Positions 9,201-62,171 of a stretch of DNA of 64,000 nt are shown here, piece after piece; position 1 is the first letter of the stretch; each line of letters begins with the position of its first letter. The stretch lies in the NCBI GenBank assembly GCA_963840645.1, contig CAWIZL010000002.1, positions 273,663 to 337,662 on the forward strand, read 5' to 3'. The DNA comes from Candidatus Doudnabacteria bacterium. GTDB taxonomy: Bacteria; Patescibacteriota; Doudnabacteria; UBA920; VMFF01. Below the pieces are notes generated by a model. The model worked only from the letters and a program-made list of their open reading frames with translations, had not been told where the DNA came from and ran no database searches. Both the position numbers and the translations under genes were made by a program.

Positions 9201-12200
9201 CAGAACGCAGCCATCACCGCAAACCGCACGTACACCCTGCCAGACCAGAGCGGCACGTTCGCGGTTGCGGCAACAGGGCCAGTGCAGCTTTCAGCTGCTG
9301 GCACCATCACGTGCCCAACCTGTCTCGTGTCAGCTGGCAGCATCTTCACGCTGGCTGCTACCTCTGGTTCAAGCTCCACAATCAACCAGGGTTCAACGGC
9401 GACCATAGCCCAGGGCACGAACATCACGACCACGAGCAATGGCTCAGGCCAGGTGACTGTGGCGACAGTTGCAAACCCAGCGTTTGCAACATCGGTGACC
9501 ACGCCGCTCGGCATTGGCTCGACCAGCGCCAACGGCACGCTGACGCTCCAGGGCAACTCGGCGACCTCGGGCAACACTGGCACGAATGCAGCCATCAGCC
9601 TGAACGTGGGTAACTCTGGCGCCACGAATGCGCTCACAGCCCTCAATAACGGCGACGTCGGCGTTGGCACAAGTTCTCCGTCAGCACTGTTCTCGGTGGG
9701 CAGTGGCTCGCCGCTCCAGGTGGATAGCTCAGGCAACCTCTCAACATCGGGAAATATTTCGACTAGTGGATCAGGTACCACAACTTCAGCAGGCCTCTTG
9801 ACTGGCCAAGCTGGCCTCACGGTCACAGGTGCTGCCACGAATCTGAATGTTTCTTCAAACTTTGGGACAAACATCAACACTGGCAGCTCGAACGGTGCTG
9901 TCTCCATCGGCAACTCGTCAGCGGGGGCAGTCGCCATTGCCTCAGGCGCAGCCTCATCGTTTACGGTCACCTCAGCTGGCCTAACCCTCCAGACGGCGAC
10001 CTCGGGCACGCTCGCCGTTACCTCAGCTGGCGCACTGAACCTGACTGGGGCAGCAGCCTCGACGCTCGCGCTTCCGTCAAACACCGCGAACGCCCTGAAG
10101 GTGACTGACGGTACGAACGGCTACCTGACCTTGGACACGAGGACTACACACAGTGGCTCTTCGGCTTTGACGTTCGCCGTTGGCACGGCGCCGACCATTG
10201 CCTCAGCCTCAGGTGCCCAGTACATTGGCACCACCAGCACCCCGGGCACGTTCAACTTTACTGGTACAACGTCTCTGACTGGCACAGGCACAGGGGCAAC
10301 CATTGGATCGCTCTTCAACCAGCCCACGGTGAATGGCAACAACACGTTCACGGTTGCCGAAACAGACAACGTGCTGGTGAGCGGCCCAGCTAAGGCCACG
10401 TCGTCATCTGGCACAGAAACCATAACGAACGCGTACGGCCTCAACGTCCTCGCTGGCGCTGCCCTCAACGGTTCTGGCGGAGCAGTCACGAACGCGTACG
10501 GCCTCTCGGTGAACGCGCCGACTGGCGCCTCGGGCAACTACGCTGCTGTGTTCCAGGGTGGCAACGTCGGCATTGGGACGGCAACGCCAGCAGCACTCCT
10601 GTCGGTTGGTTCTGGCTCGCCGTTCCAGGTGAATGGCTCGGGCACCATTACCGGTGCATCGCAAACCCTCACGGCAACAACCAACCAGCTCACGCTCGGC
10701 ACAACGAACACCACCACCATCAGCGCCACGGCACCAGCAGCATCCCGTACGTACACCATTCCCGACGATTCGGCAGCGAGCGTGAACTTCGTGCTCGCGC
10801 CGACCTCTTCAACAGCCACGCAGGCGCTCTTCGCCACGACTACTTCAGGCTCGCCAGCATACCGCGCCATTGCAACCACAGATTTACCAAGCTCAGTGGT
10901 CACCGCCATCACCAACGGCACGAACGTGACAGGCAGCATCTCGGGGCAGACGCTCACCCTCGGCTTCACTGGACAGCTCGGCGTGGGGTCTGGCGGCACG
11001 GGCGCGGTCAGCATTACAGGTCTCGTCAAGGGCAACGGTGGGTCAACGCCATTCTCGGCAGCTGTACCTGGCACAGACTACCAGGTGCCGCTCACGTTCT
11101 CGTCTGGCCTCACGAACACCTCGAACACGGTCACCAATAACCTCAGCACAGGTATCAGCGGCAACCAGACCGTGCTCGGCTCGACCTCTGCCAACGGCAC
11201 GCTGACCCTCCAGGGCGACTCGGCGAGCGGCGGCAACACGGGGACGAACGTTAACGTGCAGTTCAATGTCAGCGACTCGGGCAGCACCACGGCCCTCGCC
11301 ATCACCAACAACGGCGATGTGGGCATCGGTACCTCAACCCCAACCGCAGCCGGTCTCGTCGTTGCCACAGCTGGGGCTGCCTCGCTCTCGGGCGAGGACG
11401 TTACCGGTGCCTGGTTCACCGTGGGCGGCAACGCGACCACTACGAAGCCGCAGCTCTTGGTTGAGCCAGCGGGCACAACTTCGGCCGCTTGGTCGACCTC
11501 AGGCACAGGCCTCGGCGTAAACGCTGGTTCCAGCTTTACGGGCAACCTAGTCGATCTCCAGGTTGGCGGCACGAGCGAGTTCACGGTGAACGCCTCAGGC
11601 GATGTCACGAACGGTACGTGGCAGGGTCAGGCAATCGGGGCGTCCTACGGTGGCATGGTTTACCCTGGCTCGGGCATTCCGAACTCAACTGGATCGGCTT
11701 GGGGTACGTCGTACACGACCACGGGTGGAGGCACGATCTTAGCTCTGAGGAACTCGCCGACTTTCGCAACCCAGGTCACTGACCCACTGCTCATTGGTGC
11801 GGCCGCGGCCAACGGCACCCTGACGTTCGAGGGCAACTCGGCGACTTCGGGCAACACGGGCACGAACTCGGCTATCAGTTTCAACGTTGGGAATTCGGCG
11901 AGCACGAATGCAATCACGATACTCAACAACGGCGACGTGGGAGTTGGCACGGCCACAGCGGGCGCAAACCTCGACGTCGAGTCCACGACGACCTCGGGCA
12001 CCATCATCCAGGGCGCCGCCCCCTCCGCGGTCACCCTCGCCGGCACGCTCACCGGCCTGAACCTGAACCTCTCGACCAACGTGACGGCCACGGGCGAGTC
12101 GGTCACCGGCGCCGCCGTCACCCTGCCCGCGGTCACCAACACGGGGGCATCCACGTACACGTACAACGGCCTCTCGGTCACCGGCAGCGCCATCGTCCAG

Positions 12201-12485
12201 AACACGGGCGCCGGCACCGACAACTGGAACGGCTTCGCCATCGCCATGCCGAACCAGACCCAGACCACCGGCACGGTCACCTCGACCGGCATCGCCATCA
12301 CCGGCGGCACGGTGACGTCCGGCACGGCGTACGCGCTGACCACGTCGCTCTCGGCCGGCGCCGTCGGCTTCGGCACCACGGCCCGGGCGCCCGCCTCGAC
12401 GTCGAGTCCACGACGACCTCGGGCACCATCATCCAGGGCGCCGCCCCCTCCGCGGTCACCCTCGCCGGCACGCTCACCGGCCTGA
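6177..12485 (+). CDS. Giant surface protein, central fragment (2102 aa; Thr/Ser/Gly/Asn-rich, tail-fibre-like beta-repeats)
   Basis: Uninterrupted 6.3-kb ORF. A recurring ~70-aa module ..ANGTLTLQGNSATSGNTGTNAAISLNVGNSGATNALTALNNGDVGVGTSSP.. occurs 3 times. The GNVGIGT..P motif is typical of tail-fibre/adhesin proteins. Confidence 0.8.
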   Translation: MVFTGSVTGLPSGSSSLISTTTPQLTAGYDTAHEWSASTNSAGETTFTPSVDSASAFTFTSSNGTPLISVNTSGNVLTASGNVTLSSATPVVDSPNGTLDINTVTNQPVTFGTGTITSNGAVAISENADAGNGHTSTGLNVNITDNTTGSGAYTGLAVTATGSGVGTGSKYLLDLTPTNASNEVVFDNSGSLHPTASLSSNTASIGSPSDYFKNGYFDTITANNIQGTVVSTSTSSTSWTIGSTQTGDVNESVIFQRDSGLNNAELQWNAGSGDQRYLGVNYPFNATYTISNSSIGTTANLYSGTLTNNTTSGTQNLLSLTNAGTGTTASGIYLNNTGTGTTALDIAGTWTNGIVTNGNSISAGSGSISAANITLSGLTANTFVYSGAGGAITATSAPTNGQVLIGSTGTAPVAAALNTGNNILITDGAGSITVATVNNPVFSTSVTTPLLTSTATLTVDSGSGSPLDIGPANASAVNIAQLGVATNVLGSLAVTSNVTGGTYNTATISGGTLSGGSLTATTVNGVTTANILTTGTAFSGDLTGTYNALTLNTVNTNTGSFGSSTAIPTFTVNGKGLITAAGTAAVVAPAGTLTGTTLASNVVSSSLTSVGTIGTGTWQGTPVALQYGGTNANLTASNGGIFYSTGSAGAILSGTATPNQVLLSGSTAAPSWSTATYPATTTANQILYSSSANTLAGLATAASGVLVTSSGGAPSISSTLPAAVQGNITQVGNVAGGTYNGNTITTGTGTLTLNANTLTVSGTSNINQDVTTTASPTFAGATLSGQTTSQGILLTSSAGAISETAQGAANQVLTGQAGSTPTFENISALLSAGNDIQAISGATPTIAVSTTPTFTSVNGLAITNNGTNTLNIAAGKTLTVNNSLAFSGTDGTTFTFPGSSDTVATLGATQTLTSKTLTTPRIGTSILDANGNTILGLTATTSANNSITLANAANGSNPNISVVAGSDANAGLNLTTKGTGSFNVNSTTANSATIAIAPQAGASDSATIQNAAITANRTYTLPDQSGTFAVAATGPVQLSAAGTITCPTCLVSAGSIFTLAATSGSSSTINQGSTATIAQGTNITTTSNGSGQVTVATVANPAFATSVTTPLGIGSTSANGTLTLQGNSATSGNTGTNAAISLNVGNSGATNALTALNNGDVGVGTSSPSALFSVGSGSPLQVDSSGNLSTSGNISTSGSGTTTSAGLLTGQAGLTVTGAATNLNVSSNFGTNINTGSSNGAVSIGNSSAGAVAIASGAASSFTVTSAGLTLQTATSGTLAVTSAGALNLTGAAASTLALPSNTANALKVTDGTNGYLTLDTRTTHSGSSALTFAVGTAPTIASASGAQYIGTTSTPGTFNFTGTTSLTGTGTGATIGSLFNQPTVNGNNTFTVAETDNVLVSGPAKATSSSGTETITNAYGLNVLAGAALNGSGGAVTNAYGLSVNAPTGASGNYAAVFQGGNVGIGTATPAALLSVGSGSPFQVNGSGTITGASQTLTATTNQLTLGTTNTTTISATAPAASRTYTIPDDSAASVNFVLAPTSSTATQALFATTTSGSPAYRAIATTDLPSSVVTAITNGTNVTGSISGQTLTLGFTGQLGVGSGGTGAVSITGLVKGNGGSTPFSAAVPGTDYQVPLTFSSGLTNTSNTVTNNLSTGISGNQTVLGSTSANGTLTLQGDSASGGNTGTNVNVQFNVSDSGSTTALAITNNGDVGIGTSTPTAAGLVVATAGAASLSGEDVTGAWFTVGGNATTTKPQLLVEPAGTTSAAWSTSGTGLGVNAGSSFTGNLVDLQVGGTSEFTVNASGDVTNGTWQGQAIGASYGGMVYPGSGIPNSTGSAWGTSYTTTGGGTILALRNSPTFATQVTDPLLIGAAAANGTLTFEGNSATSGNTGTNSAISFNVGNSASTNAITILNNGDVGVGTATAGANLDVESTTTSGTIIQGAAPSAVTLAGTLTGLNLNLSTNVTATGESVTGAAVTLPAVTNTGASTYTYNGLSVTGSAIVQNTGAGTDNWNGFAIAMPNQTQTTGTVTSTGIAITGGTVTSGTAYALTTSLSAGAVGFGTTARAPASTSSPRRPRAPSSRAPPPPRSPSPARSPA

Positions 12486-13670
12486 ACCTGAACCTCTCGA
12501 CCAACGTGACGGCCACGGGCGAGTCGGTCACCGGCGCCGCCGTCACCCTGCCCGCGGTCACCAACACGGGGGCATCCACGTACACGTACAAGGGCCTCTC
12601 GGTCACCGGCAGCGCCATCGTCCAGAACACGGGCGCCGGCACCGACAACTGGAACGGCTTCGCCATCGCCATGCCGAACCAGACCCAGACCACCGGCACG
12701 GTCACCTCGACCGGCATCGCCATCACCGGCGGCACGGTGACGTCCGGCACGGCGTACGCGCTGACCACGTCGCTCTCGGCCGGCGCCGTCGGCTTCGGCA
12801 CCACGGCCCGGGCGCCCGCCTCGACGTCGAGTCCACGACGACCTCGGGCACCATCATCCAGGGCGCCGCCCCCTCCGCGGTCACCCTCGCCGGCACGCTC
12901 ACCGGCCTGAACCTGAACCTCTCGACCAACGTGACGGCCACGGGCGAGTCGGTCACCGGCGCCGCCGTCACCCTGCCCGCGGTCACCAACACGGGGGCAT
13001 CCACGTACACGTACAATCGCTCTCGGTCACCGGCAGCGCCATCGTCCAGAACACGGGCGCCGGCACCGACAACTGGAACGGCTTCGCCATCGCCATGCCG
13101 AACCAGACCCAGACCACCGGCACGGTCACCTCGACCGGCATCGCCATCACCGGCGGCACGGTGACGTCCGGCACGGCGTACGCGCTGACCACGTCGCTCT
13201 CGGCCGGCGCCGTCGGCTTCGGCACCACGGCCCCGGGCGCCCGCCTCGACGTCGAGTCCACGACGACCTCGGGCACCATCATCCAGGGCGCCGCCCCCTC
13301 CGCGGTCACCCTCGCCGGCACGCTCACCGGCCTGAACCTGAACCTCTCGACCAACGTGACGGCCATGGGCGAGTCGGTCACCGGCGCCGCCGTCACCCTG
13401 CCCGCGGTCACCAACACGGGGGCATCCACGTACACGTACAATGGCTTCTCGGTCACCGGCAGCGCCATCGTCCAGAACACGGGCGCCGGCACCGACAACT
13501 GGAACGGCTTCGCCATCGCCATGCCGAACCAGACCCAGACCACCGGCACGGTCACCTCGACCGGCATCGCCATCACCGGCGGCACGGTGACGTCCGGCAC
13601 GGCGTACGCGCTGACCACGTCGTCGTCTGCTGGCAACGTTGGTTTTGGAACAACCACACCACTGGCAGCC
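11968..13670 (+). repeat. Four near-identical tandem copies of a 426-bp (142-codon) unit inside the giant gene
   Basis: TCGACGTCGAGTCCACG recurs at 11971, 12396, 12821 and 13246, giving an observed period of 425. Only the third junction has ACGGCCCCGGG and stays in frame; the first two have ACGGCCCGGG. Track ORFs 12506..12910 and 12931..13164 are repeat fragments. Confidence 0.9.
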
Positions 13671-15656
13671 CTCGACGTGAACGGATCCATTGTTCAAACC
13701 TCTGCTGTCTTTGCCACAGAGACGTTGGCGACAGCTACCCAAACGGGCGGTTGCTCTGGCGTGGGCACCACGATCACGACTACGCAGGCAGTGTTCCAGG
13801 ACAACACGCACGTGCCGCTGACCTCTCAGATTTACTACAACACGACCAGCGGCAAGCTGCTCCACGCCACGATCAACGCAGTGGTAACCTGCACTGACGG
13901 CAGCTCGAACAAGTGGTACGTGCTCACGCTCGGCAATGCAGTGGCATCGCAGGCTGCCACAGACACCGCAACCCTGTACACGCCAGCGGGCAACCTCGGC
14001 AACGCAACGTCTGGCTTCACGAACAACCTGTACGCGGTAAACGGCCACTTCGTGACAGCTACAACGAGCGGCGGCTTCGACATTGCAGAACAGTACCAAA
14101 CAGCTGATGCAACCATGGGCGCTGGGGACGTGGTGAGCGTTGATCCTGCGAACGCTGACTACGTTGCAAAGTCTGGAACCGGATACGACAGCAGCACCAT
14201 TGGCGTTGTATCAACGACACCTGGTTTGACGCTCGGTGCAAACCTCGGCAGCACGTGGCAGAAAGTTGCGCTGACTGGGCGCGTGCCTGTGCTCGTGAGC
14301 GATGAGAACGGTGTACCTGAGCCTGGCGATTTCCTGACTTCATCTGCGAGCTTGCCTGGCTACGCCATGAAGGCAACGCGATCTGGGAAGGTGATTGGCG
14401 AGGTGCTTGACTCGTGGGCAGCTGGCGAGCAGCAGACGCAAAATGTGAATGGCCTGACCATTCATACTGAAAACCTGGACGTTGACCTGCACGTTGGGTG
14501 GGAAAATATTGGCAACACGTTTGTGATGGGTGAACAGGATCCTGTTGCCGCACTGGCGAGCACGCAGCAGAGCACTGGCAGTGGCGCCGCTGGCCTGGAC
14601 GCCTCACCAGACTCTGACACGTTCATCATCCGCCAGAACTTGGCGACTGGTGCGCCGCTGGCTGACATCCTGCAGCTGCAGTCTGGCAGTGTCACGCGCC
14701 TGATGGTTGCATCGTCTGGTGCGACCACCATAAACGCGAGCGTGGCTGATACGAGCGCCAACGTGTTTGCCATCAGCAACAACGGCACGAGCGACTTCAC
14801 CATAAGCGCGAGCGGCAACGTGTTTGTTGCAGGCACGCTGGTCGTGCAGCAGGACATTGCCAGCTTGGGCGAGGTGCTGGGCAGCACGGCAATCTTGGCG
14901 CAGAACGCTGACACAGCTGCGCTGCACCAGGGCGAGGTGGTAATGCTGAGCGGTGCTACGGCAACGCCGGTTGTTGGCAGTAATCCTACTATTACCGTGG
15001 TGGCTGCTGTTGCGCCTTCGGGCAGTTCTCCTGCCGAGCCCGTGGTAATTGGAGTTGTGGATCGTAACCTGTCTGAGTTCAACATTCCAGGTGCGCCAGC
15101 TGCATCTGGCTCGGACGTGACTGTGGTTGCGCCGGGCGAGTACGCTGATGTGGTGACAGCTGGCACGTACGCTGACCTCGACGTTGATGCGAGCTCTGCT
15201 GCAATCAGCGTTGGCGACCGCCTGACAATTTCCTCTCATGCCGGCTACGTCCGCAAGCTGGTGTTGCCTGCAGACGCTGGCATGCCAGTGGTGGGTGTTG
15301 CCCTCGATGCCCTGGCAAGTGGCACTGGCCACGTGCGCGTGTTGCTGACGCTCGGAGCTGGCGCAGGCTTTGGTGGCAGCGGTGCGAGCGGTAGCTCTTC
15401 GACCGGCACATCTGGCACGCAGGGTCTGGATCCATCAACGTACGGACAGGGTTTTGGCTGGGCACCTGGCCAGACTGGATCAAGCTCTCCAACGCCAGCG
15501 CCGACCGATGCGCTAGTCCCGACCACAACCCCTACACCTTCACCGACCGATGTCCCTACGCCAACGGATACACCTGCCCCAACCGTGTGCCCAACCCCAA
15601 CGCCAGCTGCAGCGCCAACGCCCGTGCCTACCGATACGCCAGCAGCAGGTCAGTAG
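13095..15656 (+). CDS. Giant surface protein, C-terminal fragment (last repeat, tailspike/peptidase-G2-like region, Pro/Thr-rich tail)
   Basis: The segment GFDIAEQYQTADATMGAGDVVSVDP..YDSSTIGVVSTTPGLTLG resembles the C-terminal autochaperone regions of tail spikes. The protein ends PTPAPTDALVPTTTPTPSPTDVPTPTDTPAPT. Confidence 0.75.
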   Translation: MPNQTQTTGTVTSTGIAITGGTVTSGTAYALTTSLSAGAVGFGTTAPGARLDVESTTTSGTIIQGAAPSAVTLAGTLTGLNLNLSTNVTAMGESVTGAAVTLPAVTNTGASTYTYNGFSVTGSAIVQNTGAGTDNWNGFAIAMPNQTQTTGTVTSTGIAITGGTVTSGTAYALTTSSSAGNVGFGTTTPLAALDVNGSIVQTSAVFATETLATATQTGGCSGVGTTITTTQAVFQDNTHVPLTSQIYYNTTSGKLLHATINAVVTCTDGSSNKWYVLTLGNAVASQAATDTATLYTPAGNLGNATSGFTNNLYAVNGHFVTATTSGGFDIAEQYQTADATMGAGDVVSVDPANADYVAKSGTGYDSSTIGVVSTTPGLTLGANLGSTWQKVALTGRVPVLVSDENGVPEPGDFLTSSASLPGYAMKATRSGKVIGEVLDSWAAGEQQTQNVNGLTIHTENLDVDLHVGWENIGNTFVMGEQDPVAALASTQQSTGSGAAGLDASPDSDTFIIRQNLATGAPLADILQLQSGSVTRLMVASSGATTINASVADTSANVFAISNNGTSDFTISASGNVFVAGTLVVQQDIASLGEVLGSTAILAQNADTAALHQGEVVMLSGATATPVVGSNPTITVVAAVAPSGSSPAEPVVIGVVDRNLSEFNIPGAPAASGSDVTVVAPGEYADVVTAGTYADLDVDASSAAISVGDRLTISSHAGYVRKLVLPADAGMPVVGVALDALASGTGHVRVLLTLGAGAGFGGSGASGSSSTGTSGTQGLDPSTYGQGFGWAPGQTGSSSPTPAPTDALVPTTTPTPSPTDVPTPTDTPAPTVCPTPTPAAAPTPVPTDTPAAGQ

Positions 15657-17169: not shown

Positions 17170-17202
17170 AAAGGGTTTCTAGATCTAGGGTCGAGCAAAA
17201 TA

Positions 17203-17228
17203 AAGAGCCACCGGTAAAGGTGGCTCTT
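17203..17228. terminator. Bidirectional hairpin between convergent genes
   Basis: AAGAGCCACC-GGTAAA-GGTGGCTCTT, a perfect 10-bp stem. Confidence 0.6.
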
Positions 17229-17252
17229 CGTTAAATTTTCTGTGCTGGCGAA

Positions 17253-17599
17253 CTACTTCACCACTTCTTGTACCAGCTGCGTAAACTTTTCTGGCATCTG
17301 GATGGCGAACTCTGCGAGCATCTTGCGGTTGATCTCAATTTTTTCTGCCTTGAGCATGCCAGCAAACTTGCTGTAGCTAATGCCATTGTCGCGGAGGGCA
17401 GCGTTGAGCCTGATGAGCCAGAGGGCCGCATGTCGCGCTTCTTGTTGCGGCGGTCACGGTACGCGTACTTGTCTGCGTGCAGCAGTGCCTCGCGCGCTGC
17501 CACAAAGTTTGTGCTGCGGCGGTTCTCAAAGCCCTTTGCGCGGGCAATGACGTTCTTTCTTCGCTTGAGTGCGGCAACGCCGCGCTTGATTCTTGTCAT
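17253..17599 (-). CDS. rplT: 50S ribosomal protein L20, with a 1-nt indel near 17425
   Basis: MTRIKRGVAALKRRKNVIARAKGF..YAYRDRRNKKRDMR, then after a shift at CGGCCCTC: LWLIRLNAALRDNGISYSKFAGMLKAEKIEINRKMLAE..QEVVK, with the stop at 17253. Confidence 0.85.
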
Positions 17600-17701
17600 G
17601 GGGGTCAGTAGTTAGTATGAATAGTTAGTAGTCGGATCCGCAAATTTCTCTTATCTATTGGTAGGCGCGATAGTAGTTTGGCTATTGAATACTCATACTA
17701 A
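17600..17701 (-). repeat. Structured intergenic element E1 (~100 nt), rpmI-rplT spacer
   Basis: A 14-bp perfect stem pairs AGTAGTTAGTATGA (17607-17620) with TCATACTAACTACT (17693-17706). The core contains GGATCCG and CTATTGGTAGGCG. Confidence 0.7.
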
Positions 17702-17896
17702 CTACTTGTAGGGGATGAGCTGTCCGAGCTTTGGGTTGGACTTCGTGAGGGTGTTGTCGCGGCGCTTGCGCGTGCCAACGTTGCCCGAGTTGCGAGAGTT
17801 GAAGTGGTCTTGGCCAGTGTGGCGAACCATTATTTTTCCAGTCCCTGTTTTCTTGAGGCGCTTTGCCGCGCCCTTGTGCGTCTTAATCTTTGGCAT
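17702..17896 (-). CDS. rpmI: 50S ribosomal protein L35
   Basis: MPKIKTHKGAAKRLKKTGTGKIMVRHTGQDHFN.. Confidence 0.95.
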   Translation of the reverse strand: MPKIKTHKGAAKRLKKTGTGKIMVRHTGQDHFNSRNSGNVGTRKRRDNTLTKSNPKLGQLIPYK

Positions 17897-18004
17897 GTCA
17901 GTAGTTAATAGGTAATAGTTAATAGATGGATCCGAACAGTTCGCTTTCTATTGGTAGGCGGCTCGTAGTTTAGCTATTGTCTACTAACTATTAACTACTG
18001 AACA
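17897..18004 (-). repeat. Structured intergenic element E2 (~105 nt), infC-rpmI spacer
   Basis: By my manual alignment roughly three quarters of positions match E1. A 13-bp stem pairs CAGTAGTTAATAG (17899-17911) with CTATTAACTACTG (17988-18000). It has the same GGATCCG and CTATTGGTAGGCG core. Confidence 0.7.
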
Positions 18005-18533
18005 CTACTTCCCATCCAATTTCGCTGTCATTTTCCCCCGCGTGAGTAAGACTGATATCGTGTTGCCCTGCTTCTTTGCAGGTGATTCAATCTCGACGCT
18101 CGGCAGTGATGCAATGAACGTCTTCATGACCTCAAAGCCTCGCTCTGCAAAAGCCTGTTCGCGTCCGCGCATCATGAGGTCAACTTTCACCTTGTCGCCG
18201 TCATCGAGGAACCTCTCAGACTGCTTGGCCTTGATGCCCATGTCGTGCTCTGAAATTCGTAGTGAGAGGCGAATGTTCTTCACCTCAATCTTCTTGACCT
18301 TTTTCTTCTGCTGCTGCTCCAGTTTCTTCTGGTGGTAGCGGAACTTGTCAAAGTTGGTGAGCTTGGTGACCGGTGGCACTGCCTGCGGTGAAACCTCAAC
18401 GAGGTCTAGCCCACGGTCCATGCGCCAGTGCGATTGCGTCGGCAATCGCCATGATGCCGAGCTGGCCTCCGTCTTCGTCAATGACGCGAACCTCTGGAAC
18501 GCGTATTTGTGCATTTACCCTTGATTTCTGCAA
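18005..18533 (-). CDS. infC: Translation initiation factor IF-3, with an indel near 18422
   Basis: The upstream frame reads ..QKSRVNAQIRVPEVRVIDEDGGQLGIMAIADAIALA and joins ..DRGLDLVEVSPQAVPPVTKLTNFDKFRYHQKK... The probable start is the TTG at 18533. Confidence 0.85.
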
Positions 18534-18619
18534 ATCGGACTTTTTAAATTTTGGTCATGTGAATTTGATTAGATTATAGCCATTTTACTGGATTTGGTCA
18601 AATGGTGTAGAATGGGTAC

Positions 18620-18784
18620 ATGGCACTCATAGTAGTAGTTGTTGCATTGATCCTCCTAGGTGTTTTTGTTTTGATATTCCATGGAGCCTTGGCGTTTGGC
18701 TACAAACGTGGGGGGGTTTGGGGTCTTTTCAGAATGGCTGGAGCTGTTATTTTTCATGAATTCATGGTTATCTTTTTTCACTAG
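18620..18784 (+). CDS. Candidate 54-aa hydrophobic peptide (below the track cutoff)
   Basis: ATG at 18620 gives MALIVVVVALILLGVFVLIFHGALAFGYKRGGVWGLFRMAGAVIFHEFMVIFFH, with TAG at 18782. There are two hydrophobic stretches. A TGtTAGAAT box ends 10 nt upstream. Confidence 0.3.
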   Translation: MALIVVVVALILLGVFVLIFHGALAFGYKRGGVWGLFRMAGAVIFHEFMVIFFH

Positions 18785-18819: not shown

Positions 18820-19214
18820 GGGGATGACGGATCTTGACAGTGAACAGATCCACGCAAGTACGCAAGCCGGGCACTCTCAGAACCCCGTAACATTACTGAG
18901 AAAACTCCAACTGGCAACTTTGTTGCTAAGGTGAAGAATGCGTTCGCTCCGGCGTTCGCCTTCGCACCTGCTATGGCCTAGTCACTAGGTCGTAGCGCGC
19001 GACCTCGGCGTGCCTCGCGCCTTGGCCACCGCGCTTTATATAGAGGCTCACCTTGCTGGATGTGCACGCGACAGCAGGGGACACCACAGCGCGCAGACCT
19101 GCTGGTTAGTTTGTCCGTTTGTTAGCGTGCAGGCACTCAAAGCGGACTAAGCTTGTGATCAACTCGTGTGGTGACAGTCGCTGAGACCCAGTTTAACTCT
19201 CGGCATCTCCACCA
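18820..19214 (+). ncRNA. ssrA: tmRNA (transfer-messenger RNA)
   Basis: The 5' end GGGGATGACGGATCTTGACAG pairs with the 3' end CATCTCC-A-CCA, including a G3-U pair. AACTGGCAAC parallels the Bacillus resume region. The tag ORF is GGC AAC TTT..GCT ATG GCC TAG. Confidence 0.85.
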
Positions 19215-35302: not shown

Positions 35303-37120
35303 ATGCAAGACTACTCAGTTCCAGTGAGGGTGGTACAACCTAACATGCCCCAGCGCCAAAATAGCGGCAACGCTTTCAGAGATTTTTACGAGAAGAACAA
35401 GATTGCCGTGTGGGCAATTGTTGTGTCGCTCGCGGTCATTGGGGCCATCCTCTTGGTCATTTTCCACAGGCCAGGTGCTGTGGTGCCGCCAAAGGTTACG
35501 CTGCAGATCAGCGCACCTGCACAAATCTCAACGGCAACAGCTACCGTGTACCAGCTCACGGTCACAAATTCTGACACGTCGCCCATCAGCAACGTCTCAA
35601 TAGACGTGCTGTACCCATCTGGCTTCACGTTCCAGTCGAGCTCGCCACCGGCCTCAAGCTCAGACGGCACCACGTTCAACAACATCACGCAGCTCGGCCC
35701 AGGACAGAACGCCGTCATTGCAATCAAGGGCAGCACAGCTGGCAACAATGGCCAGGTGCAGCAGATCAACGCGGTCATGCACTACCAGTTCGCAAGTGCA
35801 TCCACAGATTTTGTGGCGCAGGCTTCCTCGCAATCGACCATCAGCAACTCTGGCATTGCGCTGCAGGTTTCTGGACAGGAGCAGGTGAACAACGGGCAGG
35901 TGACCACGTACACGTTTGGCTACACCAACACAACTGCGAACGCCGTTAGCGACATGGCCATGACCGTGAACTTGCCAGCTGGCTTTACGCCAACATCGTA
36001 CGTTCCAAATCCAGCTGCTCCGCTCGGCCAGGGCAACAGCACTCTTACCTGGAACCTGCCGAGCCTGCCGGCGAACGGCACTGGCTCTGTGCAAATCGTA
36101 GGTGCATTTGCGGGTCTCAGCACTGGTACCCAGGGAAATTTTGCCGTTCAGATTGATGGCACAGTGGCTGGTGCTACGCCAACCCCAACAGTGGGTTCCT
36201 CTGTGAACACTGCTCCTGCTGTGCTCGCATCGACAACGTACCAGGTTACCGTTGTGGTGAACCCAATTTCTGCGACGCTCACCCTCCAAGCTCCGACGAG
36301 CGTTGACCCAGGCACGCAGCTCTCGTACCAGCTTGCGTACCAGAACAGTGGACAGACCGCGGCAACCGGCATCAACATCACCGTCACGCTCGTTGGCGAT
36401 GCGTACGACCTCACCACGCTCTCTGCGCCAATGTCGAGCATCACGGGCAACACAATTACGTGGAACGGCTCCCAGGTTCAGCAGCTGGCAGACCTTGGCC
36501 CAAACCAGCAGGGGACCCTCAGCTTTACCATTGGCGTGAAGAACCCTGCCACGAGAGGCGACGTAGAGAACATGACAGTTACAGCTACACCTTCGATTGA
36601 GAGCGACCAGTTCCAGCAGCCGTTCAGTGGCACCCCAATTTCTACAAAAGTAAATACGCAGCTCGTGCTCGATGAGACTGCAGCGGTGAGCAGTGGCCCA
36701 AACCCTCCGACAGTTGGCCAGCAGACAACGTACACTGTCGTGCTCGGCCTGCGGAACACCACGAACGATGTGAACGGCGTGGTGGTCACCGCGAGCCTGC
36801 CAGAGGCGTACAACTTTGACCCAACGCTCGTCACGTTCGTAGAGCAGAAGAACGTGACGTACGATCCCGGTACGCGCATGCTTACCTGGAACGTGGGAAC
36901 AGTGCCCGCGCAGACCGGCGACTTCAACCCCGTGCGCAGCCTTACGCTCACGGTGGTGGTCTTGCCAGACCAGTCAAACATTGGCCAGCAAATGTCGCTC
37001 CTCACGAACGTTGCCGTGACCGGCACAGACGCCTTTACCGGAAACCAAATTTCACTCACCGGCAGCAAGCTCACAACGTCTGCTGACCCAGGTGGCAATG
37101 GAACCGTGGTAGCGCAATAA
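35303..37120 (+). CDS. Membrane-anchored surface protein with about 5 DUF11/CARDB-like Ig-fold repeats
   Basis: Start trimmed to the ATG at 35303 (MQDYSVPV..). TM helix IAVWAIVVSLAVIGAILLVIF. Repeated ~100-aa modules such as YQLTVTNSDTSPISNVSIDVLYPSGFTF and YTFGYTNTTANAVSDMAMTVNLPAGFTP. Confidence 0.65.
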   Translation: MQDYSVPVRVVQPNMPQRQNSGNAFRDFYEKNKIAVWAIVVSLAVIGAILLVIFHRPGAVVPPKVTLQISAPAQISTATATVYQLTVTNSDTSPISNVSIDVLYPSGFTFQSSSPPASSSDGTTFNNITQLGPGQNAVIAIKGSTAGNNGQVQQINAVMHYQFASASTDFVAQASSQSTISNSGIALQVSGQEQVNNGQVTTYTFGYTNTTANAVSDMAMTVNLPAGFTPTSYVPNPAAPLGQGNSTLTWNLPSLPANGTGSVQIVGAFAGLSTGTQGNFAVQIDGTVAGATPTPTVGSSVNTAPAVLASTTYQVTVVVNPISATLTLQAPTSVDPGTQLSYQLAYQNSGQTAATGINITVTLVGDAYDLTTLSAPMSSITGNTITWNGSQVQQLADLGPNQQGTLSFTIGVKNPATRGDVENMTVTATPSIESDQFQQPFSGTPISTKVNTQLVLDETAAVSSGPNPPTVGQQTTYTVVLGLRNTTNDVNGVVVTASLPEAYNFDPTLVTFVEQKNVTYDPGTRMLTWNVGTVPAQTGDFNPVRSLTLTVVVLPDQSNIGQQMSLLTNVAVTGTDAFTGNQISLTGSKLTTSADPGGNGTVVAQ

Positions 37121-37179: not shown

Positions 37180-37277
37180 GAGACAAAAAGAAGAAGCCCT
37201 AGCTCAGCTGAATGCTGTCTTTTCTTTCAGAAAAGAAACGGATTCAGAAATCGCTGCGGGCTTCTTCTTTTTGTCTC
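37180..37277. repeat. Long palindromic intergenic element, copy B (bidirectional terminator-like)
   Basis: Perfect 20-bp arms GAGACAAAAAGAAGAAGCCC and GGGCTTCTTCTTTTTGTCTC. The inner core is the reverse complement of the copy A/C core (..CCGTTTCTTTTCTGAAAGAAAAGACAG..). Confidence 0.65.
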
Positions 37278-37285
37278 TGGATAGC

Positions 37286-38590
37286 TTAGTAAATGAACCC
37301 TCTGATGACCGGTGATGCAATGCCGATCGTCCTGGTGTCAGTAATGCCCAAGCCCTTGTAGTTCATTTCAGTGACCGTGAACGAGTCTTTGCTGACGCTG
37401 TCCACGACGGCAACGTGGCCGTAGCGGCTCTCGTCAGTTACCACAATGGCTCCAGGAATTGGCGTGCGGCCTTCTTTTGCGCCGAGCGCTGCTGCGTTCG
37501 CCAGCCAGTTTCGCGCGTTGCCGCCCCACGTCACGTGCCGCACCTCAGCCACGTAGTACGTGCACTGTCCCCACGGGAACTCGTGCTCAGAGCCCGGCAA
37601 GTCTTGAATGCCTGGAGGTGCAGGCTCGTAGTACACCTTGCCGCCAACGGTCAGCTTCACCTTTGCAGGCGCTGGCTTTGCCGCGGGCTTTGGCGCTGGC
37701 ACTGTGCCACCTGGAATAATCAAAATGTCACCTGGGTTGATGTCGCTCTCGTCCGCGAGGTTGTTGTAAGAAATAATCTGGTTGACGTCAGCGCTGAAGT
37801 AGCTGGCAATGTCTGGCAGCGTGTCGTTGGCTGTCACCTTGTGCAGGACGCCGCTCGTCGGCAGGATGAGCAGGTCCCAGCCAGGCTGAATGGTGTTGCT
37901 CGGCAGGTTGTTCGCCCACACAATGGTGTCTGGGGTGATGCCGTACTTCTGCGCAATGCTGTCGAGCGTATCACCCGGCTGCGTGACGTACACTTTAATC
38001 TGCTCGAGCACGAGCGTGCGTGCGCTGCTCGTGTCAACTTTCGTGATGCTGTTGCCGTCAGACACAGCTGCACCAGACTGGTTGTCAGGGTCTGAGCTAT
38101 CGTCACCTGTGCCTCCGCTGCTGTCGCCTTCCACAGAGTCTGCCGTGATGACAGTGTCTGCATCAGCGGTCTGGATGAACACGTTGCCGTTAGACTGAGC
38201 CACGACGGTCTTCACGGTGGTAGCTGCTGCGTACAAATTTTCGTTCTGGCCAGGGTGGAACGACAGCTCTTTTGCGAACAGGTTGCTGCTGTTGAAGGCT
38301 GCCAGAACCTGCGTGCCGGTGAAGTTAATGCCAATTACAATGAAAGACAGCACCAGAACAACGAGCTCGGTGCTGAACTTGAACGTGTAGTCAATGTGAT
38401 CCATCTCCACTGAAGAGTGGTGGGCGTGGAACGTGCTGAAGTGCTTCGCAATGCGTGCGACAGTGGCTCTGAAATTGGCTGCAAGCTTTACTGCAGTTTC
38501 TCGCAGCTTATGCAGCTGCTGCGTAATGTACGCTAGGGGAGGTTGAATGCAAACTCCTGTAACACCGCGTAACCGAACGTTTCTTCGCAT
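37286..38590 (-). CDS. Peptidoglycan hydrolase: TM, 2 x LysM, CHAP amidase/peptidase domain
   Basis: LysM: YVTQPGDTLDSIAQKYGITPDTIVWANNL and HKVTANDTLPDIASYF..IISYNNL. CHAP: FPWGQCTYYVAEV..YGHVAVVDSV. Confidence 0.85.
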   Translation of the reverse strand: MRRNVRLRGVTGVCIQPPLAYITQQLHKLRETAVKLAANFRATVARIAKHFSTFHAHHSSVEMDHIDYTFKFSTELVVLVLSFIVIGINFTGTQVLAAFNSSNLFAKELSFHPGQNENLYAAATTVKTVVAQSNGNVFIQTADADTVITADSVEGDSSGGTGDDSSDPDNQSGAAVSDGNSITKVDTSSARTLVLEQIKVYVTQPGDTLDSIAQKYGITPDTIVWANNLPSNTIQPGWDLLILPTSGVLHKVTANDTLPDIASYFSADVNQIISYNNLADESDINPGDILIIPGGTVPAPKPAAKPAPAKVKLTVGGKVYYEPAPPGIQDLPGSEHEFPWGQCTYYVAEVRHVTWGGNARNWLANAAALGAKEGRTPIPGAIVVTDESRYGHVAVVDSVSKDSFTVTEMNYKGLGITDTRTIGIASPVIRGFIY

Positions 38591-42486: not shown

Positions 42487-43497
42487 ATGGAACTAGATAG
42501 GCAAAAAATTTACATAATTTCTGGAGTCGTTGGACTGGTGATTGTCATGGTCATCGGGTTCTTCTACTACAACTCTGTCGTTTCAAAAAATAAACTCGCG
42601 ACAACCACTGGCACGGGTCCTTCTACCTCGGGCAGTGGAGGCCTCGGCACGCTGCCGCCCCTGCAGACAACAACGCCGCCAACTCGGCCATCGCCGCCAG
42701 TGCTCCACACAGATGCGAGCCAGCCGTACGCAACAATCTTGCCGCGCGAGAGCCAGCCAGCGCCGTCACCAACCCCAGTGGCCACCAGCACAGCCCCAGT
42801 GCAGCCAACGCCCGCGCAAGCCGTGAACTCTGCGGGCATGGATAGCTCCATGGCGTTCCAGTACAATGACCTCGCGTCTCTGACGGAAGACCAGCTCATG
42901 GCAAAGTACGACCCAAACTACCAGAGCGTTGAGCAGAACTTCACGCCACCTCCGAGCAGCGTGGATGGCATTGCCGCAAACGGCACTGACGGCGTCGTGA
43001 CCGTGCCTGCCACGCCACCGCTCACGTCTATTCCAACCGTGCCACTGCCAAACGGCGTGACCTTCACCGTGAACCAGGAGAACGATCCGCAGTCACTGCA
43101 GAACTACCTAACCACGCTGTCCAGCACTGTGGCTCCTTTTGATATTTCAAACCCAAACAACAGCAGCCTGGTGTCTTCAGCTGTCACCGATGCAATATCA
43201 AACCCTGCAAAGTACAAGGCAGACCTTGCAGCTGGGAAGAGCATGCTCACCCAGATCCAGGCGCTGCCAGTGCCGAGCGACCTAGCTGGCCTGCAGGATT
43301 CCTACTACAACCTCTACAGCCAGTACGTGACGCTCGTCGGCGATGCAGGTAGCGTATCGAGCAGCAACCAGACAACGGCAGTTGCCGCTGACTCAGCCGT
43401 GCAGCAGGATGCCGCCCAGTTTGGAAGCTCGCTCGAGACAACGCTCAATGACCTCAACGATTCCCAGACCGTTGTGCAGAATGCCGCAAGCCAATGA
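42487..43497 (+). CDS. Membrane-anchored Pro/Thr-rich hypothetical protein
   Basis: TM helix IYIISGVVGLVIVMVIGFFYY followed by a Pro-rich linker. The C-terminal domain shows motif-level resemblance to the previous ORF. Confidence 0.55.
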   Translation: MELDRQKIYIISGVVGLVIVMVIGFFYYNSVVSKNKLATTTGTGPSTSGSGGLGTLPPLQTTTPPTRPSPPVLHTDASQPYATILPRESQPAPSPTPVATSTAPVQPTPAQAVNSAGMDSSMAFQYNDLASLTEDQLMAKYDPNYQSVEQNFTPPPSSVDGIAANGTDGVVTVPATPPLTSIPTVPLPNGVTFTVNQENDPQSLQNYLTTLSSTVAPFDISNPNNSSLVSSAVTDAISNPAKYKADLAAGKSMLTQIQALPVPSDLAGLQDSYYNLYSQYVTLVGDAGSVSSSNQTTAVAADSAVQQDAAQFGSSLETTLNDLNDSQTVVQNAASQ

Positions 43498-44353
43498 AGA
43501 ACGCACATAAAAAAATTCAGGTAGCAGTTGTTGCCCTCGCGCTCCTCATTGGCGGCACGTACGCAGATACTGCGCACGCGGTGCTTGGCCTCGGTGACAT
43601 TGTGGTCGCAGACATCGCGCACGACATCACGGTTGAAATTCCAGCCATCATTGAGCAGGTCATCCTCACCGCAGTCAATGACTCGGCGAACCTTGCGCTG
43701 CAGAGCGCGCTCCAGCCGAGGAAAATTACAGACCACGTGAACTACGCCCTAAACCTCACGAACCAGATATACGTCAGCCACGCAATGGTCACGAGCAACG
43801 ATTCAAACAGCGCCCTCACGCTGGCGGCATCTCGCAGATACAGAGGTTGCCAGGCGGTGCGCCAAACTCAGGCCAGATTGCCCAGCAGCGTGCAATGACA
43901 GCGTTCAACCCTTACAGCATCAACCCGCAGATCGGCAACCCGAGCATGTCTATCGTGGACGTGTTGGCTCCTGCGTCATCGCCAAACGCAAACATTTCGT
44001 ACCAGACAGAGGCAATGTACGGCAATGCGACCACGGTGCTGGCTCTCGCGCAGCAGGGCGCGAACAAGGACGTTGCAGCTGGGGCTGGGTCTAAGTCAAC
44101 GTACAGCGCGCCCACTGGTGGCCAATCGAGCGGCGGCTTGAACGTGAACAGTGCTGCGAAAGAGGTTGATACAGCGCTCGATGGCATTGTGTCGTCCTCA
44201 TTTGGCAACCAGCAGAAGCCGCAGAACAACGTGTCCGCAATGTTCCTGGCAATTGCAGACGTGTTCATAAAGACCCTCAACCAAAAGCTGGTGGGAGCTG
44301 CTGCTGGCACGCCGATCAGCAACGGTTCAGCATCGTACTCGCCCACGCACTAG
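43494..44353 (+). CDS. Secreted hypothetical protein, split by an indel between about 43800 and 43850
   Basis: Signal peptide MKNAHKKIQVAVVALALLIGGTYADTAHA. ORFs 43494..43898 and 43847..44353 are contiguous in adjacent frames. Confidence 0.5.
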
Positions 44354-44374
44354 CGTGCTGGGTGGGCAGGCAAA

Positions 44375-44408
44375 GACCTCAGGGGCAGCAAGCTCTGAGG
44401 CCTTTTTA
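44375..44408 (+). terminator. Weak internal terminator followed by a promoter (TTGCGT-17-GATAAT, 44424-44452)
   Basis: CCTCAG (44377-44382)..CTGAGG (44395-44400) followed by CCTTTTTAT. Confidence 0.45.
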
Positions 44409-44463
44409 TACACAGCAGAGCGTTTGCGTATTGACCCTGCGTGTGCGATAATTTAAGCAAAGT

Positions 44464-45627
44464 ATGCACACTGAAGAAACAAAAAGAAGCATAAAATTTG
44501 GGGTCAAAAAATGGGCGATTTTTGCTGCGACAGTTTTTGTTTTCTCGGCTGTTGTGGTAGCAGGGTACGCGCCTGGAAGTGCGATGGCAGCAGGTACTGT
44601 TGCCGCTGGTGGCCAGTGTCCAACTGGGAATGAGTGTACATCAGGTCTTACGTGTACGCAGGGCTACTGCTTGCCACCTAGTCTCACCAAGACGTGCAAC
44701 ACAACATCTAGCACTGCAGATGGCTGCGATGATGCGGATGGCTACGTCTGTATGTCTGGAACGTGTTTCAACACTTCAACTCAAACCGTCCAACCTGTCT
44801 CGAGCACGGCAGCGACACTTGGGACGCTTGGAATTTTTGTTACGGGTGAAACTGGTAACAGCGATGCCTCTTTGGCTTTTGGTGTATCGCCAACCTACTC
44901 GATGACAGCCACTGTTGGAGGTATTGGCGCTAACTATGCTTGTACACAGGCAACTTGTGGTAACTATAAATTTGCTTGGACAGATAATGGAAAACCTATA
45001 AACGGATGTTCGAATAACTACACGTGCTCTGATACCATACAGAATCCCACGTCTACTTCAAGAGATTCTGTAATGTACGTTTTGACCGACAGTAACGGTG
45101 GTACCCACAACAGTGCAGCAATAAACTTGACGCACGATACGAATACGGGAGACAACAGCGGCCTATCTGGTGGTGGCTTGAGCTTCGGCATTGTTGTGGT
45201 CAGTGAAGATGTCACTGTTAATCCGTCACCCTTCAACTTGTCGGCAACAGTTGGCGGCGTAACGTGTAACAACGCCAACAATAATCCCTCAGCAACGCCA
45301 CCTACAAACCTCTGCGGTGTGTACGGCATGGCTTGGTCTGCGAACAACACTCCAATACCAGGCTGTTCGAATACGTGGAACTGTAATTACAGCAGCCCAG
45401 ATTTAAATGATTCTGTTACGTACACGGTAACGAGCAATGGCACTGTGATCGGCACGAGCGGTGTTTTAAAAATTACACCAAACACAACTAATGGAAGCTC
45501 AGAGCGGTGGGTCTGGTGCATTGGCACCTGCAACGGCACAGCAAATAGCGAGTGCCGGGGCGGGTACAGTAACACCATGCCAAGACTCAGGCTGAGCACT
45601 GTCCAATCGTGGATATTATTACAGTAG
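44464..45627 (+). CDS. Secreted Cys-rich protein with an internally duplicated ~110-aa domain
   Basis: TM/signal WAIFAATVFVFSAVVVAGYA, then a Cys-knot-like CPTGNECTSGLTCTQGYC. Two repeats: ..MTATVGGIGANYACTQATCGNYKFAWTDNGKPINGCSNNYTC.. and ..LSATVGGVTCNN..LCGVYGMAWSANNTPIPGCSNTWNC.. Confidence 0.6.
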   Translation: MHTEETKRSIKFGVKKWAIFAATVFVFSAVVVAGYAPGSAMAAGTVAAGGQCPTGNECTSGLTCTQGYCLPPSLTKTCNTTSSTADGCDDADGYVCMSGTCFNTSTQTVQPVSSTAATLGTLGIFVTGETGNSDASLAFGVSPTYSMTATVGGIGANYACTQATCGNYKFAWTDNGKPINGCSNNYTCSDTIQNPTSTSRDSVMYVLTDSNGGTHNSAAINLTHDTNTGDNSGLSGGGLSFGIVVVSEDVTVNPSPFNLSATVGGVTCNNANNNPSATPPTNLCGVYGMAWSANNTPIPGCSNTWNCNYSSPDLNDSVTYTVTSNGTVIGTSGVLKITPNTTNGSSERWVWCIGTCNGTANSECRGGYSNTMPRLRLSTVQSWILLQ

Positions 45628-47564: not shown

Positions 47565-47568
47565 TCTC

Positions 47569-48603: not shown

Positions 48604-49366
48604 ACAGTGCAAACTTAGGCAAGGTGCGCAGCCTCATTGCCACAACGCAGCTTTTGAACGACCAGGAAAAAGCTGAGTGGACACAGCACTTGGCGAGCAT
48701 GAACGACCAGCAGGTTGAGAGCCTCATCGCGTTCCTCACGCCAAAGGACAAAGTTGCGCCACCACCAGCGCCATCTCCTCCACCACCAGCAGCACCAACG
48801 TCCCTCGAAAAAGTTATGGCGAGCGTTGTTGCCGCACACGCCGAGAGCCAGAGTCCAAAGGTGTCGCAACCAATCCCACAGCCAATCCCAGCGCCATCTC
48901 CAGCACCGCCGCAGCCAGTGCCGCCACCATCTCCAGCACCACAGCCAGTGCCAAAGCCCCAGCCGCTCAAGCCCCTGCAGTCTGCACCGCCACCAGCAGC
49001 ACCCACCGGAAAGATGGCGCAGCCAAAGCTTGCCGAGTACTCAGACCAGCTCGTGCACGACGGCTCATTGCACGTCTCAAGCAGCCTCAAGATTTTGCAA
49101 AGCTGTCTACGCAGGACATCCACTACACGCACCCTGAAAAAGTTTTCACAGCCGTCTACCAGCACACCGTAGAGATGGTGAAGTCGCAGCCAGGTTGGAC
49201 AATCGTGCAGAGCCTTGAGTCTAGCCCGCTGTACCAAGCGTACATCGACACAGGCCACCTCCTGCTCAACGACGCGAACGCTGACACGAGCCGCTTTGAC
49301 ATGTCAAAAGAAGAGTTTGAGGCGTTCGCGGATTTCCGCAGGAGCATGAACGCAATTGGTGGGTAG
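48600..49366 (+). CDS. Hypothetical proline-rich protein, split by an indel near 49062
   Basis: ORF 48600..49172 joins 49175..49366 through an adjacent frame: ..YSDQLVHDG / LIARLKQPQDFAKLSTQDIHYTHPEKVFTAVYQHTVEMVKSQPGW.. Confidence 0.5.
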
Positions 49367-49392
49367 GCCGCGCTATACTGTATACTTTCACT

Positions 49393-49830: not shown

Positions 49831-49832
49831 CA

Positions 49833-50528: not shown

Positions 50529-50530
50529 CC

Positions 50531-52378: not shown

Positions 52379-52408
52379 TATGAGTATTCAGTAGACAACT
52401 ACCCACCT
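52366..52408 (+). repeat. Truncated third copy (E3) of the E1/E2 element
   Basis: CAGTAGTTAGTATGAGTATTCAGTAGACAACTAC compared with the mRNA-sense E1 AAGTAGTTAGTATGAGTATTCAATAGCCAAACTAC. It starts in the VirB4-like stop codon and ends at the next ATG. Confidence 0.6.
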
Positions 52409-53170: not shown

Positions 53171-53267
53171 AGCTGGATAGCTCTATCCACAGCAAAGCCT
53201 TGCGCGGGCCGCAGATTTTATGCATAATGTATGCAGGTAGCTTACTCAAGTAAGAGAAATAAAAACA

Positions 53268-62145: not shown

Positions 62146-62171
62146 AAACACCAGCAGTGTTTTTTAGGAAA

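Follow-up and report, generated by a model that had tools for sequence, protein, structure and literature searches.

The infC-rpmI-rplT operon, which encodes IF3 together with two proteins of the ribosome, L35 and L20, lies on the minus strand of a 64,000-nucleotide (nt) stretch of contig CAWIZL010000002.1; this entire stretch is referred to as the window. Each of the two intergenic spacers of the operon is filled with a hairpin element, E1 between rpmI and rplT and E2 between infC and rpmI. The genes and the parts of the elements are located as follows, the arms and cores being described in the mRNA sense.

18005-~18535, minus strand: infC (IF3), first gene of the operon, recognized from open reading frames (ORFs) and their frames and from the Pfam domains IF3_N/IF3_C in the L001 orthologue
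17897-18004, minus strand: E2, 108-nt hairpin element that takes up the infC-rpmI spacer, with a minimum free energy in the mRNA sense of -35.0 kcal/mol (z = -5.0)
17974-18001, minus strand: 5' arm of E2, made of the 7-nt words TTAATAG, TTAGTAG and ACAATAG, with stops in all three frames
17926-17973, minus strand: core of E2, C/A-rich, holding AAACTAC, CCTACCAATAGA and GGATCC
17898-17925, minus strand: 3' arm of E2, made of CTATTAA-type 7-nt words and ending 1 nt before the rpmI AUG at 17896
17702-17896, minus strand: rpmI (L35, 64 amino acids (aa)), with E1 and E2 on either side
17600-17706, minus strand: E1, hairpin element filling the rpmI-rplT spacer, the stem of which takes in the rpmI stop codon (17702-17704)
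17682-17706, minus strand: 5' arm of E1, AGTAGTTAGTATGAGTATTCAATAG, with stops in all three frames
17632-17681, minus strand: core of E1
17607-17631, minus strand: 3' arm of E1, followed by the linker GACCCCC and then by the rplT AUG at 17599
17253-17599, minus strand: rplT (L20), last gene of the operon, with the Pfam domain Ribosomal_L20 in the orthologues

Architecture of the elements

E1 and E2 are homologous, with 85% mean column identity in a MAFFT alignment and 70% identity in a stricter global alignment, as anticipated by the original prediction, which had been made from the sequence alone and described related hairpins of about 100 nt in both spacers. The arms of E1 are 25 nt long and 84% complementary and those of E2 are 28 nt long and 86% complementary, and each pair of arms includes a perfect stretch of 14 base pairs (bp; AGTAGTTAGTATGA in E1 and TCAGTAGTTAATAG in E2), in agreement with the perfect inverted repeats of 13-14 bp that had been reported. 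The conserved centre was also noticed correctly: TCTATTGGTAGGCG is exact in E1 and E2, and GGATCCG is present in both copies.

The arms are short tandem arrays of a 7-nt word, as detected with Tandem Repeats Finder. In the mRNA sense, the word reads TTAGTAG or TTAATAG on the 5' side and CTACTAA or CTATTAA on the 3' side. These arrays, with stops in three frames of the 5' arms, account for the 'stop-codon-rich words' of the original prediction. The arm word occurs eight times at up to three mismatches, compared with 0.57 occurrences expected, and none of the 100 shuffled sequences reached eight. The core, about 50 nt long and C/A-rich in the mRNA sense, is mostly unpaired in the predicted mRNA fold. 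The A+T content of the elements is 61-62%, and both fold better than shuffled sequence (z from -3.1 to -5.6). Except for an overlap of 5 nt between E1 and the end of rpmI with its stop codon, the arms and cores lie outside the ORFs of the three genes. The flanks of E1 are AAGTAG on one side and GACCCCC-ATG on the other side, and those of E2 are TAG-TGT and C-ATG. Within the tentative interpretation developed below, E1 and E2 are paralogous copies of a non-coding palindromic insertion of ~100 nt with arms of the form (TTAGTAG)n/(CTACTAA)n.

A further, partial copy is found far from the operon.

52370-52408, plus strand: third, partial copy with the linker CCACCT, extending from the stop codon of a virB4-like gene (TAG, 52376-52378) up to the AUG at 52409

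Aligned with the 34 nt that form the 5' half of E1, the 33 nt at 52370-52402 agree at 31 of 34 positions, with one gap in the copy; the first 21 nt are identical to the 5' arm of E1 in the mRNA sense, and the orientation relative to transcription is the same. The junction downstream of the virB4-like gene is 30 nt long in the window, compared with 3 nt in the orthologous junction of L093, which shares one scaffold with L096, a relative considered below. A 6-bp stem, GUAGUU/AACUAC, could form in the mini-copy with the same arrangement of stop and start, and is partly matched in the predicted fold. The truncated copy that had been noted after virB4 is therefore real, if short (31/34), and argues against a role specific to ribosomal proteins. 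The idea that the third copy is a complete but diverged element, a part of which has been taken up by the following gene, was rejected, the similarity of the tail not being above that of shuffled sequences. The gene that follows virB4 encodes a fast-evolving low-complexity protein, with an N-terminus that differs between the window and L093. The virB4-like gene itself is a member of a type-IV-secretion-like cluster (43000-53200), in which VirB4 contains the Pfam domains DUF87/AAA_10/P-loop_TraG; PrgI-like and TraC-like genes adjoin virB4 in L093, and the synteny of the cluster is kept with an 87%-identical relative.

Distribution and turnover among relatives

The L35 protein of the window is 100% identical to P0001, which contains the Pfam domain Ribosomal_L35p. 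The relatives compared included the contigs L001/L003 and L002, in which L35 is unchanged, and four more members of the 90%-identity L35 cluster. Four lineages have both spacers filled by elements, namely, the window, L001/L003/L106, L002 and L102/L103. Two relatives with L35 at least 90% identical lack them: in L096, infC and rpmI overlap and the second spacer is 27 nt long, and in L100, the spacers are 25 and 21 nt long. The IF3 and L20 proteins of these two are 82-91% identical to those of the element bearers. Elements are lacking also in the more distant L004, L007, L010 and L091, where the genes overlap or are separated by 1 to 45 nt, and in L092, where the spacers of 61 and 95 nt consist of unrelated A/T-rich sequence. 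In the nearest relatives without elements, the corresponding junctions are thus gene overlaps or measure no more than 27 nt. A search of relatives for the signature had been suggested along with the original prediction, and its outcome is this restriction to four lineages. In a scan of genome contigs, the nearest GTDB species representatives by L35 are only 64% identical and are Patescibacteria metagenome-assembled genomes, and the named VirB4 matches are Doudnabacteria. As a part of the same tentative interpretation, the insertion would have arisen in a narrow clade of Patescibacteria, with Doudnabacteria as the closest named relatives.

Few copies were found. An exact-pattern scan of genome contigs for the window-type core gave no matches, and neither did a broader core pattern in metagenome and viral contigs or blastn against plasmid and phage collections. 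The two metagenome matches to the L001-type arm pattern, both in unrelated AT-rich sequence, were dismissed as chance. A profile search of the window and the fetched loci (634 kb) recovered the operon copies only, and blastn-short found one fragment besides these, the 33 nt at 52370. The count stands at two full copies and one 33-nt fragment in 64 kb, with none elsewhere in the ~37 kb of related element-bearing contigs; no dispersed full copies were found in the ~100 kb of readable element-bearing genomes, which leaves room for low-copy dispersal elsewhere.

The sequence of the elements turns over rapidly. Among the window, L001 and L002, the flanking genes are 90-95% identical at the DNA level and the spacers 51-75% identical. 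Between L001 and L002, 4-fold degenerate sites are 78% identical and the spacers 51-57% identical, that is, the spacers are less alike than the 4-fold sites, so the elements change at or above the neutral (synonymous) rate. Some orthologous signatures persist, such as ...AAACTAC-A-CCGCC... in spacer 1 (window, L002 and L001), which points to inheritance of both elements from a common ancestor and speaks against repeated re-insertion.

Despite this divergence, the arms remain complementary, with Watson-Crick pairs at 168 of the 197 aligned positions. Paired with either of the two 3' arms of its genome, its own or the one in the other spacer, a 5' arm forms a duplex of about -20 kcal/mol, compared with about -11 kcal/mol for arms of other lineage types. 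The self duplexes average -21.8 kcal/mol and the permuted pairings -14.8 kcal/mol (p=0.0003), and when permutation is performed at the level of genomes, the true pairing ranks first of 24. Since pairing within a genome beats the permutations, the four arms of a genome evolve in concert. This is also the result of the covariation analysis that had been proposed originally: the arms co-vary within a genome, not between lineages. Covariation was measured with the arm-by-arm duplex matrix and the permutation test in place of RNAalifold columns; RNAalifold recovers only nine pairs from the MAFFT alignment of the eight elements, and column-wise covariation is ill-defined because the arms are 7-nt arrays of shifting register. 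In spacer 1 of L002, the 3' arm (1320-1359) contains 5.7 copies of CTACTAA at 93% match, more than its 5' partner. Through this expansion, which demonstrates slippage of the array directly, ~20 nt ahead of the AUG are left unpaired.

E1 and E2 are a clade-restricted, fast-evolving insertion and do not represent a conserved regulator of ribosomal protein genes. In form, they are closest to the bacterial repeats resembling miniature inverted-repeat transposable elements (MITEs) and to the intercistronic palindromes of the REP type. E1 and E2 share with the MITE-like repeats, such as Correia/NEMIS, ERIC, RUP and the Rickettsia RPE (PMC3184786, PMC2229807), the length of ~100 nt, the lack of coding capacity, terminal inverted repeats around a short core, the capacity to form a long hairpin, the intergenic location within transcription units and the presence/absence differences between close relatives. 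They differ from these repeats in the low copy number, in the 7-nt microsatellite-like arms, in the termini that fall at stop and start codons, in the lack of a target-site duplication in the comparison of filled with empty junctions (the sequences adjacent to the arms are complementary, not repeated) and in having no known cognate transposase. With regard to a cognate insertion sequence with matching terminal repeats, pattern scans of genome, metagenome and viral contigs gave nothing or chance matches. The MITE-like option of the original prediction thus held with respect to the lineage specificity of the elements, which are absent from L096, L100 and the distant relatives, and failed with respect to target duplication and, within the ~100 kb of element-bearing genomes read, dispersed copies. 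REP units are G+C-rich and ~35 nt long, number in the hundreds and are associated with RAYT transposases (PMC3184786), in contrast to E1 and E2, with ~61% A+T, ~100 nt and two to three copies. E1 and E2 share with REP/BIME (Higgins et al. 1982, Stern et al. 1988, cited in PMC3184786) that they are palindromes located between cistrons within operons and able to act post-transcriptionally on the neighbouring genes. The combination found here is that of a low-copy palindrome that lacks a target duplication and has arms made of 7-nt arrays and ends that coincide with stop and start codons.

Hairpin geometry and translation of the operon

Two sites at the borders of the operon bear on its transcription.

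18573-18601, minus strand: promoter-like site TTGACC-17-TATAAT (11/12), upstream of infC
17202-17229, minus strand: GC-rich terminator-like hairpin with a T run, 3' of rplT, bidirectional, with a convergent plus-strand gene on the opposite side

Only a short leader lies between the promoter-like site and infC. No terminator-like site was found at E1 or E2 when a G+C-rich stem followed by a U run was sought. Given the promoter-like site before infC, the terminator-like hairpin after rplT and nothing terminator-like within the elements, E1 and E2 should be internal to one tricistronic mRNA. The possibility that the elements are intrinsic terminators or attenuators was rejected, the terminator of the operon being at 17229-17202.

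In the mRNA sense, the stem of E1 contains the rpmI stop and ends 7 nt before the rplT AUG, and E2 begins 3 nt past the stop codon of infC and finishes 1 nt short of the AUG of rpmI, in line with the placement of the arms in the original prediction. This arrangement recurs in all eight elements of the four lineages: the predicted mRNA stem starts at the upstream stop or within a few nt of it and ends 0-20 nt before the AUG. The hairpin geometry is the only feature that is maintained, with the primary sequence drifting.

Shine-Dalgarno-like motifs are scarce upstream of the ~56 crude gene calls in the window, so initiation probably depends on an unpaired start region. The predicted unpaired probability between positions -15 and +5 around the AUG is 0.11-0.79 at the junctions with elements and 0.67-0.81 at the element-free junctions. 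When the footprint of a ribosome is masked in silico on the upstream stop, the accessibility of the start region rises to 0.40-0.85 in five of the eight elements. These predictions suggest a mechanism in which the palindromic insertion would be transcribed as a part of the infC-rpmI-rplT mRNA and the stem would hide the start region of the downstream cistron, in a genome largely devoid of Shine-Dalgarno sites. A ribosome terminating on the upstream stop would melt the foot of the stem and free the downstream start region. The rpmI and rplT genes could thereby stay translationally coupled across a gap of 100 nt, as in the RNA-unfolding model, and an operon that is essential and tightly coupled would tolerate the insertion owing to its palindromic shape.

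Precedents of coupling by RNA unfolding are the long hairpin before gene IX of phage f1 (VII/IX) and the MS2 coat/lysis junction, and the E. coli rpmI-rplT pair, coupled across a spacing of +52 nt, is a textbook case (PMC12548453). In probable working, E1 and E2 are closest to these coupling hairpins, with which they share a structure over the downstream start that the ribosome opens, presumably so in E1 and E2, as it completes the cistron before; the operon, rpmI-rplT, is that of the E. coli case. They differ in that an inserted element supplies both strands of the helix, that stop and start are at the feet of a single ~100-nt hairpin, that the genome appears to lack Shine-Dalgarno sites and that coupling is here a matter of prediction. 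Of the four options that the original prediction listed with no choice among them, the MITE-like insertion and translational coupling, with which the stop/start geometry is compatible, gained ground and the L20/L35 leader lost it. The best reading, under which E1 and E2 are a lineage-specific, co-transcribed palindromic insertion with a hairpin that keeps the downstream cistrons, devoid of Shine-Dalgarno sites, coupled to upstream translation, is plausible and, taken as a whole, falls slightly short of an even chance.

If coupling holds, the operon is a natural experiment in which an insertion of ~100 nt in two formerly contiguous junctions of an essential operon survives because it forms a hairpin, with a bearing on coupling at a distance and on coupling in bacteria without Shine-Dalgarno sites. 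If it does not, E1 and E2 are small, clade-restricted junk DNA, useful mainly as a strain marker, and a warning against taking every hairpin in a ribosomal protein operon for an autoregulatory leader. The elements also present the case of a low-copy palindrome whose four arms evolve concertedly while the sequence turns over faster than synonymous sites.

Several points weigh against the coupling interpretation. The coupling step is one that we infer from modelled folds, and three of the eight elements show no gain in accessibility with the modelled ribosome. The complementarity of the arms could persist without selection, through template switching at quasipalindromes or gene conversion. The mismatches in the inner part of the elements are mostly A·C in the mRNA sense (60, compared with 19 G·U), which weakens the mRNA hairpin relative to the antisense one; in the arms proper, the bias (13 vs 6) is not significant (p=0.17). 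Neither a target duplication nor a transposase accompanies the insertion. Finally, the element bearers are monophyletic in only 0.3% of the bootstraps of the operon tree, which implies that a single ancient insertion has to be combined with a loss in L100.

In this neighbour-joining tree of the three operon genes, the element-free L100 groups with L102 with 90% bootstrap support; however, the three lineages are nearly equidistant at 4-fold sites (0.58-0.65). Comparison of the short spacers (610-634 and 830-850 in L100; 10196-10222 in L096) shows that one L100 spacer, TACGTAAC-GAACTACCCA, resembles the inner part of L102 spacer 1 (p=0.005) and that CCACACAG-TAAGAGAAA resembles the inner part of E1 of the window (p=0.003); spacer 2 of L100 also resembles the spacer of the outgroup L096. 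This likeness of the L100 spacers to internal parts of the elements tentatively favours a deletion that removed the elements from L100. The element-free spacers could be deletion remnants, or the core of the element could descend from an ancestral spacer.

The strongest rival, itself unlikely, overlaps with the coupling interpretation with respect to the origin of the elements and posits neutral or selfish palindromic DNA that has no role in expression, with complementarity renewed by slippage, template switching and gene conversion between copies 300 nt apart. Sequence change at or above the synonymous rate, arrays of variable length (such as the 5.7 copies of CTACTAA in spacer 1 of L002), homogenization of the four arms of each genome, as gene conversion predicts, and A·C mismatches that weaken the mRNA hairpin are all compatible with this explanation, as is the fact that L100 and L096 have lost or lack the elements and that their operons show no visible effect of this. 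Set against it, translation is hardly likely to be unaffected by a stem of 17-28 bp that abuts a start lacking a Shine-Dalgarno site in an operon that is essential, and the stop/start geometry is kept in the eight elements and in the mini-copy next to virB4.

It is still less probable that the elements are intercistronic signals of RNA processing or stability, which, through cleavage by RNase III or a block to 3'-exonucleases, would divide the tricistronic mRNA and set the levels of IF3, L35 and L20 separately. The early RNase III sites of phage T7 are a precedent of intercistronic processing. E1 and E2 are placed exactly between cistrons and have stems of 13-17 perfect bp, or 25-28 bp with mismatches; REP provides an example of an element between cistrons with an influence on mRNA stability (PMC3184786), and a preprint (bioRxiv 10.64898/2026.09.18.752551) reports a substrate of RNase III within a bicistronic transcript. 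This explanation has to contend with several mRNA-sense stems that are short or interrupted (z = -1.7 for spacer 2 of L002 and -0.9 for spacer 2 of L102), with a putative cleavage site that lacks conserved sequence and with close relatives that manage without the element.

An elaboration of coupling, under which the hairpin, with stop and start at its two feet, would be an evolved re-initiation 'bridge' for shunt-like transfer of ribosomes across 100 nt in a bacterium devoid of Shine-Dalgarno sites, the arrays would provide fail-safe termination in three frames, the arms shared by E1 and E2 would pair alternatively over a long range, looping out rpmI and tuning the L35:L20 ratio, and the concerted evolution of the arms would reflect selection rather than gene conversion, is speculative and improbable.

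An autoregulatory operator for L20 or L35, with a core that mimics the rRNA site of the protein and represses translation of rpmI and rplT, is among the least probable explanations. E2 is located upstream of rpmI, the site of action of the L20 operator in E. coli (PMC1888825), and thus shares the operon and this position with the L20 leader and operators (RF00558; the E. coli pseudoknot and stem-loop, PMC1865079, PMC1888825); an L20 leader of the Bacillus type would not fit into the short leader ahead of infC. Against this, Rfam covariance models run over the window at the gathering threshold gave no match at the elements, and at E<=10 over 17200-18700, the sole overlap is with a miRNA model (25 bits, compared with a gathering score of 90). 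Hence, the scan for L20-leader-type models that accompanied the original prediction matched no family. In addition, the element is missing from L096 and L100 despite near-identical L20 and L35, free divergence is seen in the core (CGCCTACCAATAGA / CGCCGAGCAATCAA / ACATGCATCAATCAG), a duplicate precedes rplT and a fragment sits at an unrelated operon, after the virB4-like gene. With no Rfam match, absence from close relatives and a poorly conserved core, the L20/L35 option of the original prediction found no support.

A functional antisense (window plus) strand, yielding a structured antisense RNA or a strand-specific single-stranded DNA hairpin, is similarly remote: the antisense fold is 6-19 kcal/mol more stable than that of the mRNA strand in seven of the eight elements and pairs that are G·U on the antisense strand only are in excess (60 vs 19), but the asymmetry vanishes in the arms proper (13 vs 6, p=0.17), the z-scores against shuffled sequences are alike on both strands, so that composition accounts for most of the effect (in sense the core is rich in C/A, in antisense in G/U), the plus-strand promoter-like match that overlaps E2, the sole such site nearby, is weak (9/12), and attC core sites are absent. 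Two further candidates were rejected, an integron attC site (R'', RYYYAAC, and R', GTTRRRY, are absent from both strands of E1 and E2) and a kissing-loop or protein-binding site at the GGATCC hexamer (GAATTC in spacer 1 of L001), which is not kept in spacer 2 of L001 or in L102.

Neighbouring genes and other repeats

Two genes of the operon are frameshifted relative to the intact orthologues in L001-L003: infC has one extra nt near 18420 (orthologues of 175 aa) and rplT lacks one nt near 17426 (orthologues of 115 aa). These frameshifts could result either from assembly errors or from pseudogenization of two essential genes. All three genes of the operon end with AAG TAG (Lys-stop), and the end of rplT (17253-17262) reads AAGTAGTT, the 8 nt with which E1 also opens. 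Of the stop codons in the ~56 crude gene calls, TAG leads with 27 occurrences, ahead of TAA (17) and TGA (12), the last thus serving as a stop codon, and TAG-NN-ATG is the reading of many operon junctions in the window. Just upstream of the infC promoter, in divergent orientation, lies a transfer-messenger RNA gene (18820-19214, plus strand; Rfam RF00023, 67.8 bits); in the relative L010, smpB is located near the infC-rpmI-rplT operon.

Two other inverted repeats, both unrelated to E1 and E2, were detected in the window. A perfect 20-nt repeat (GAGACAAAAAGAAGAAGCCC / GGGCTTCTTCTTTTTGTCTC) with 58 nt between the arms (37180-37277) and no Rfam match is located between convergent genes (35303-37120 on the plus strand and 37286-38590 on the minus strand). 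An imperfect 40-nt repeat at 62171-62259, 78% complementary with a 9-nt loop, adjoins a tRNA gene (62271-62344, minus strand). The G+C content reaches 63-69% at 10000-14000, compared with ~53% elsewhere in the window, and the ORF at 13095-15656 encodes a Thr/Gly/Ala-rich protein of 853 aa with an internal direct repeat (two copies of MPNQTQTTGTVTSTGIAITGGTVTSGTAYALTTS).

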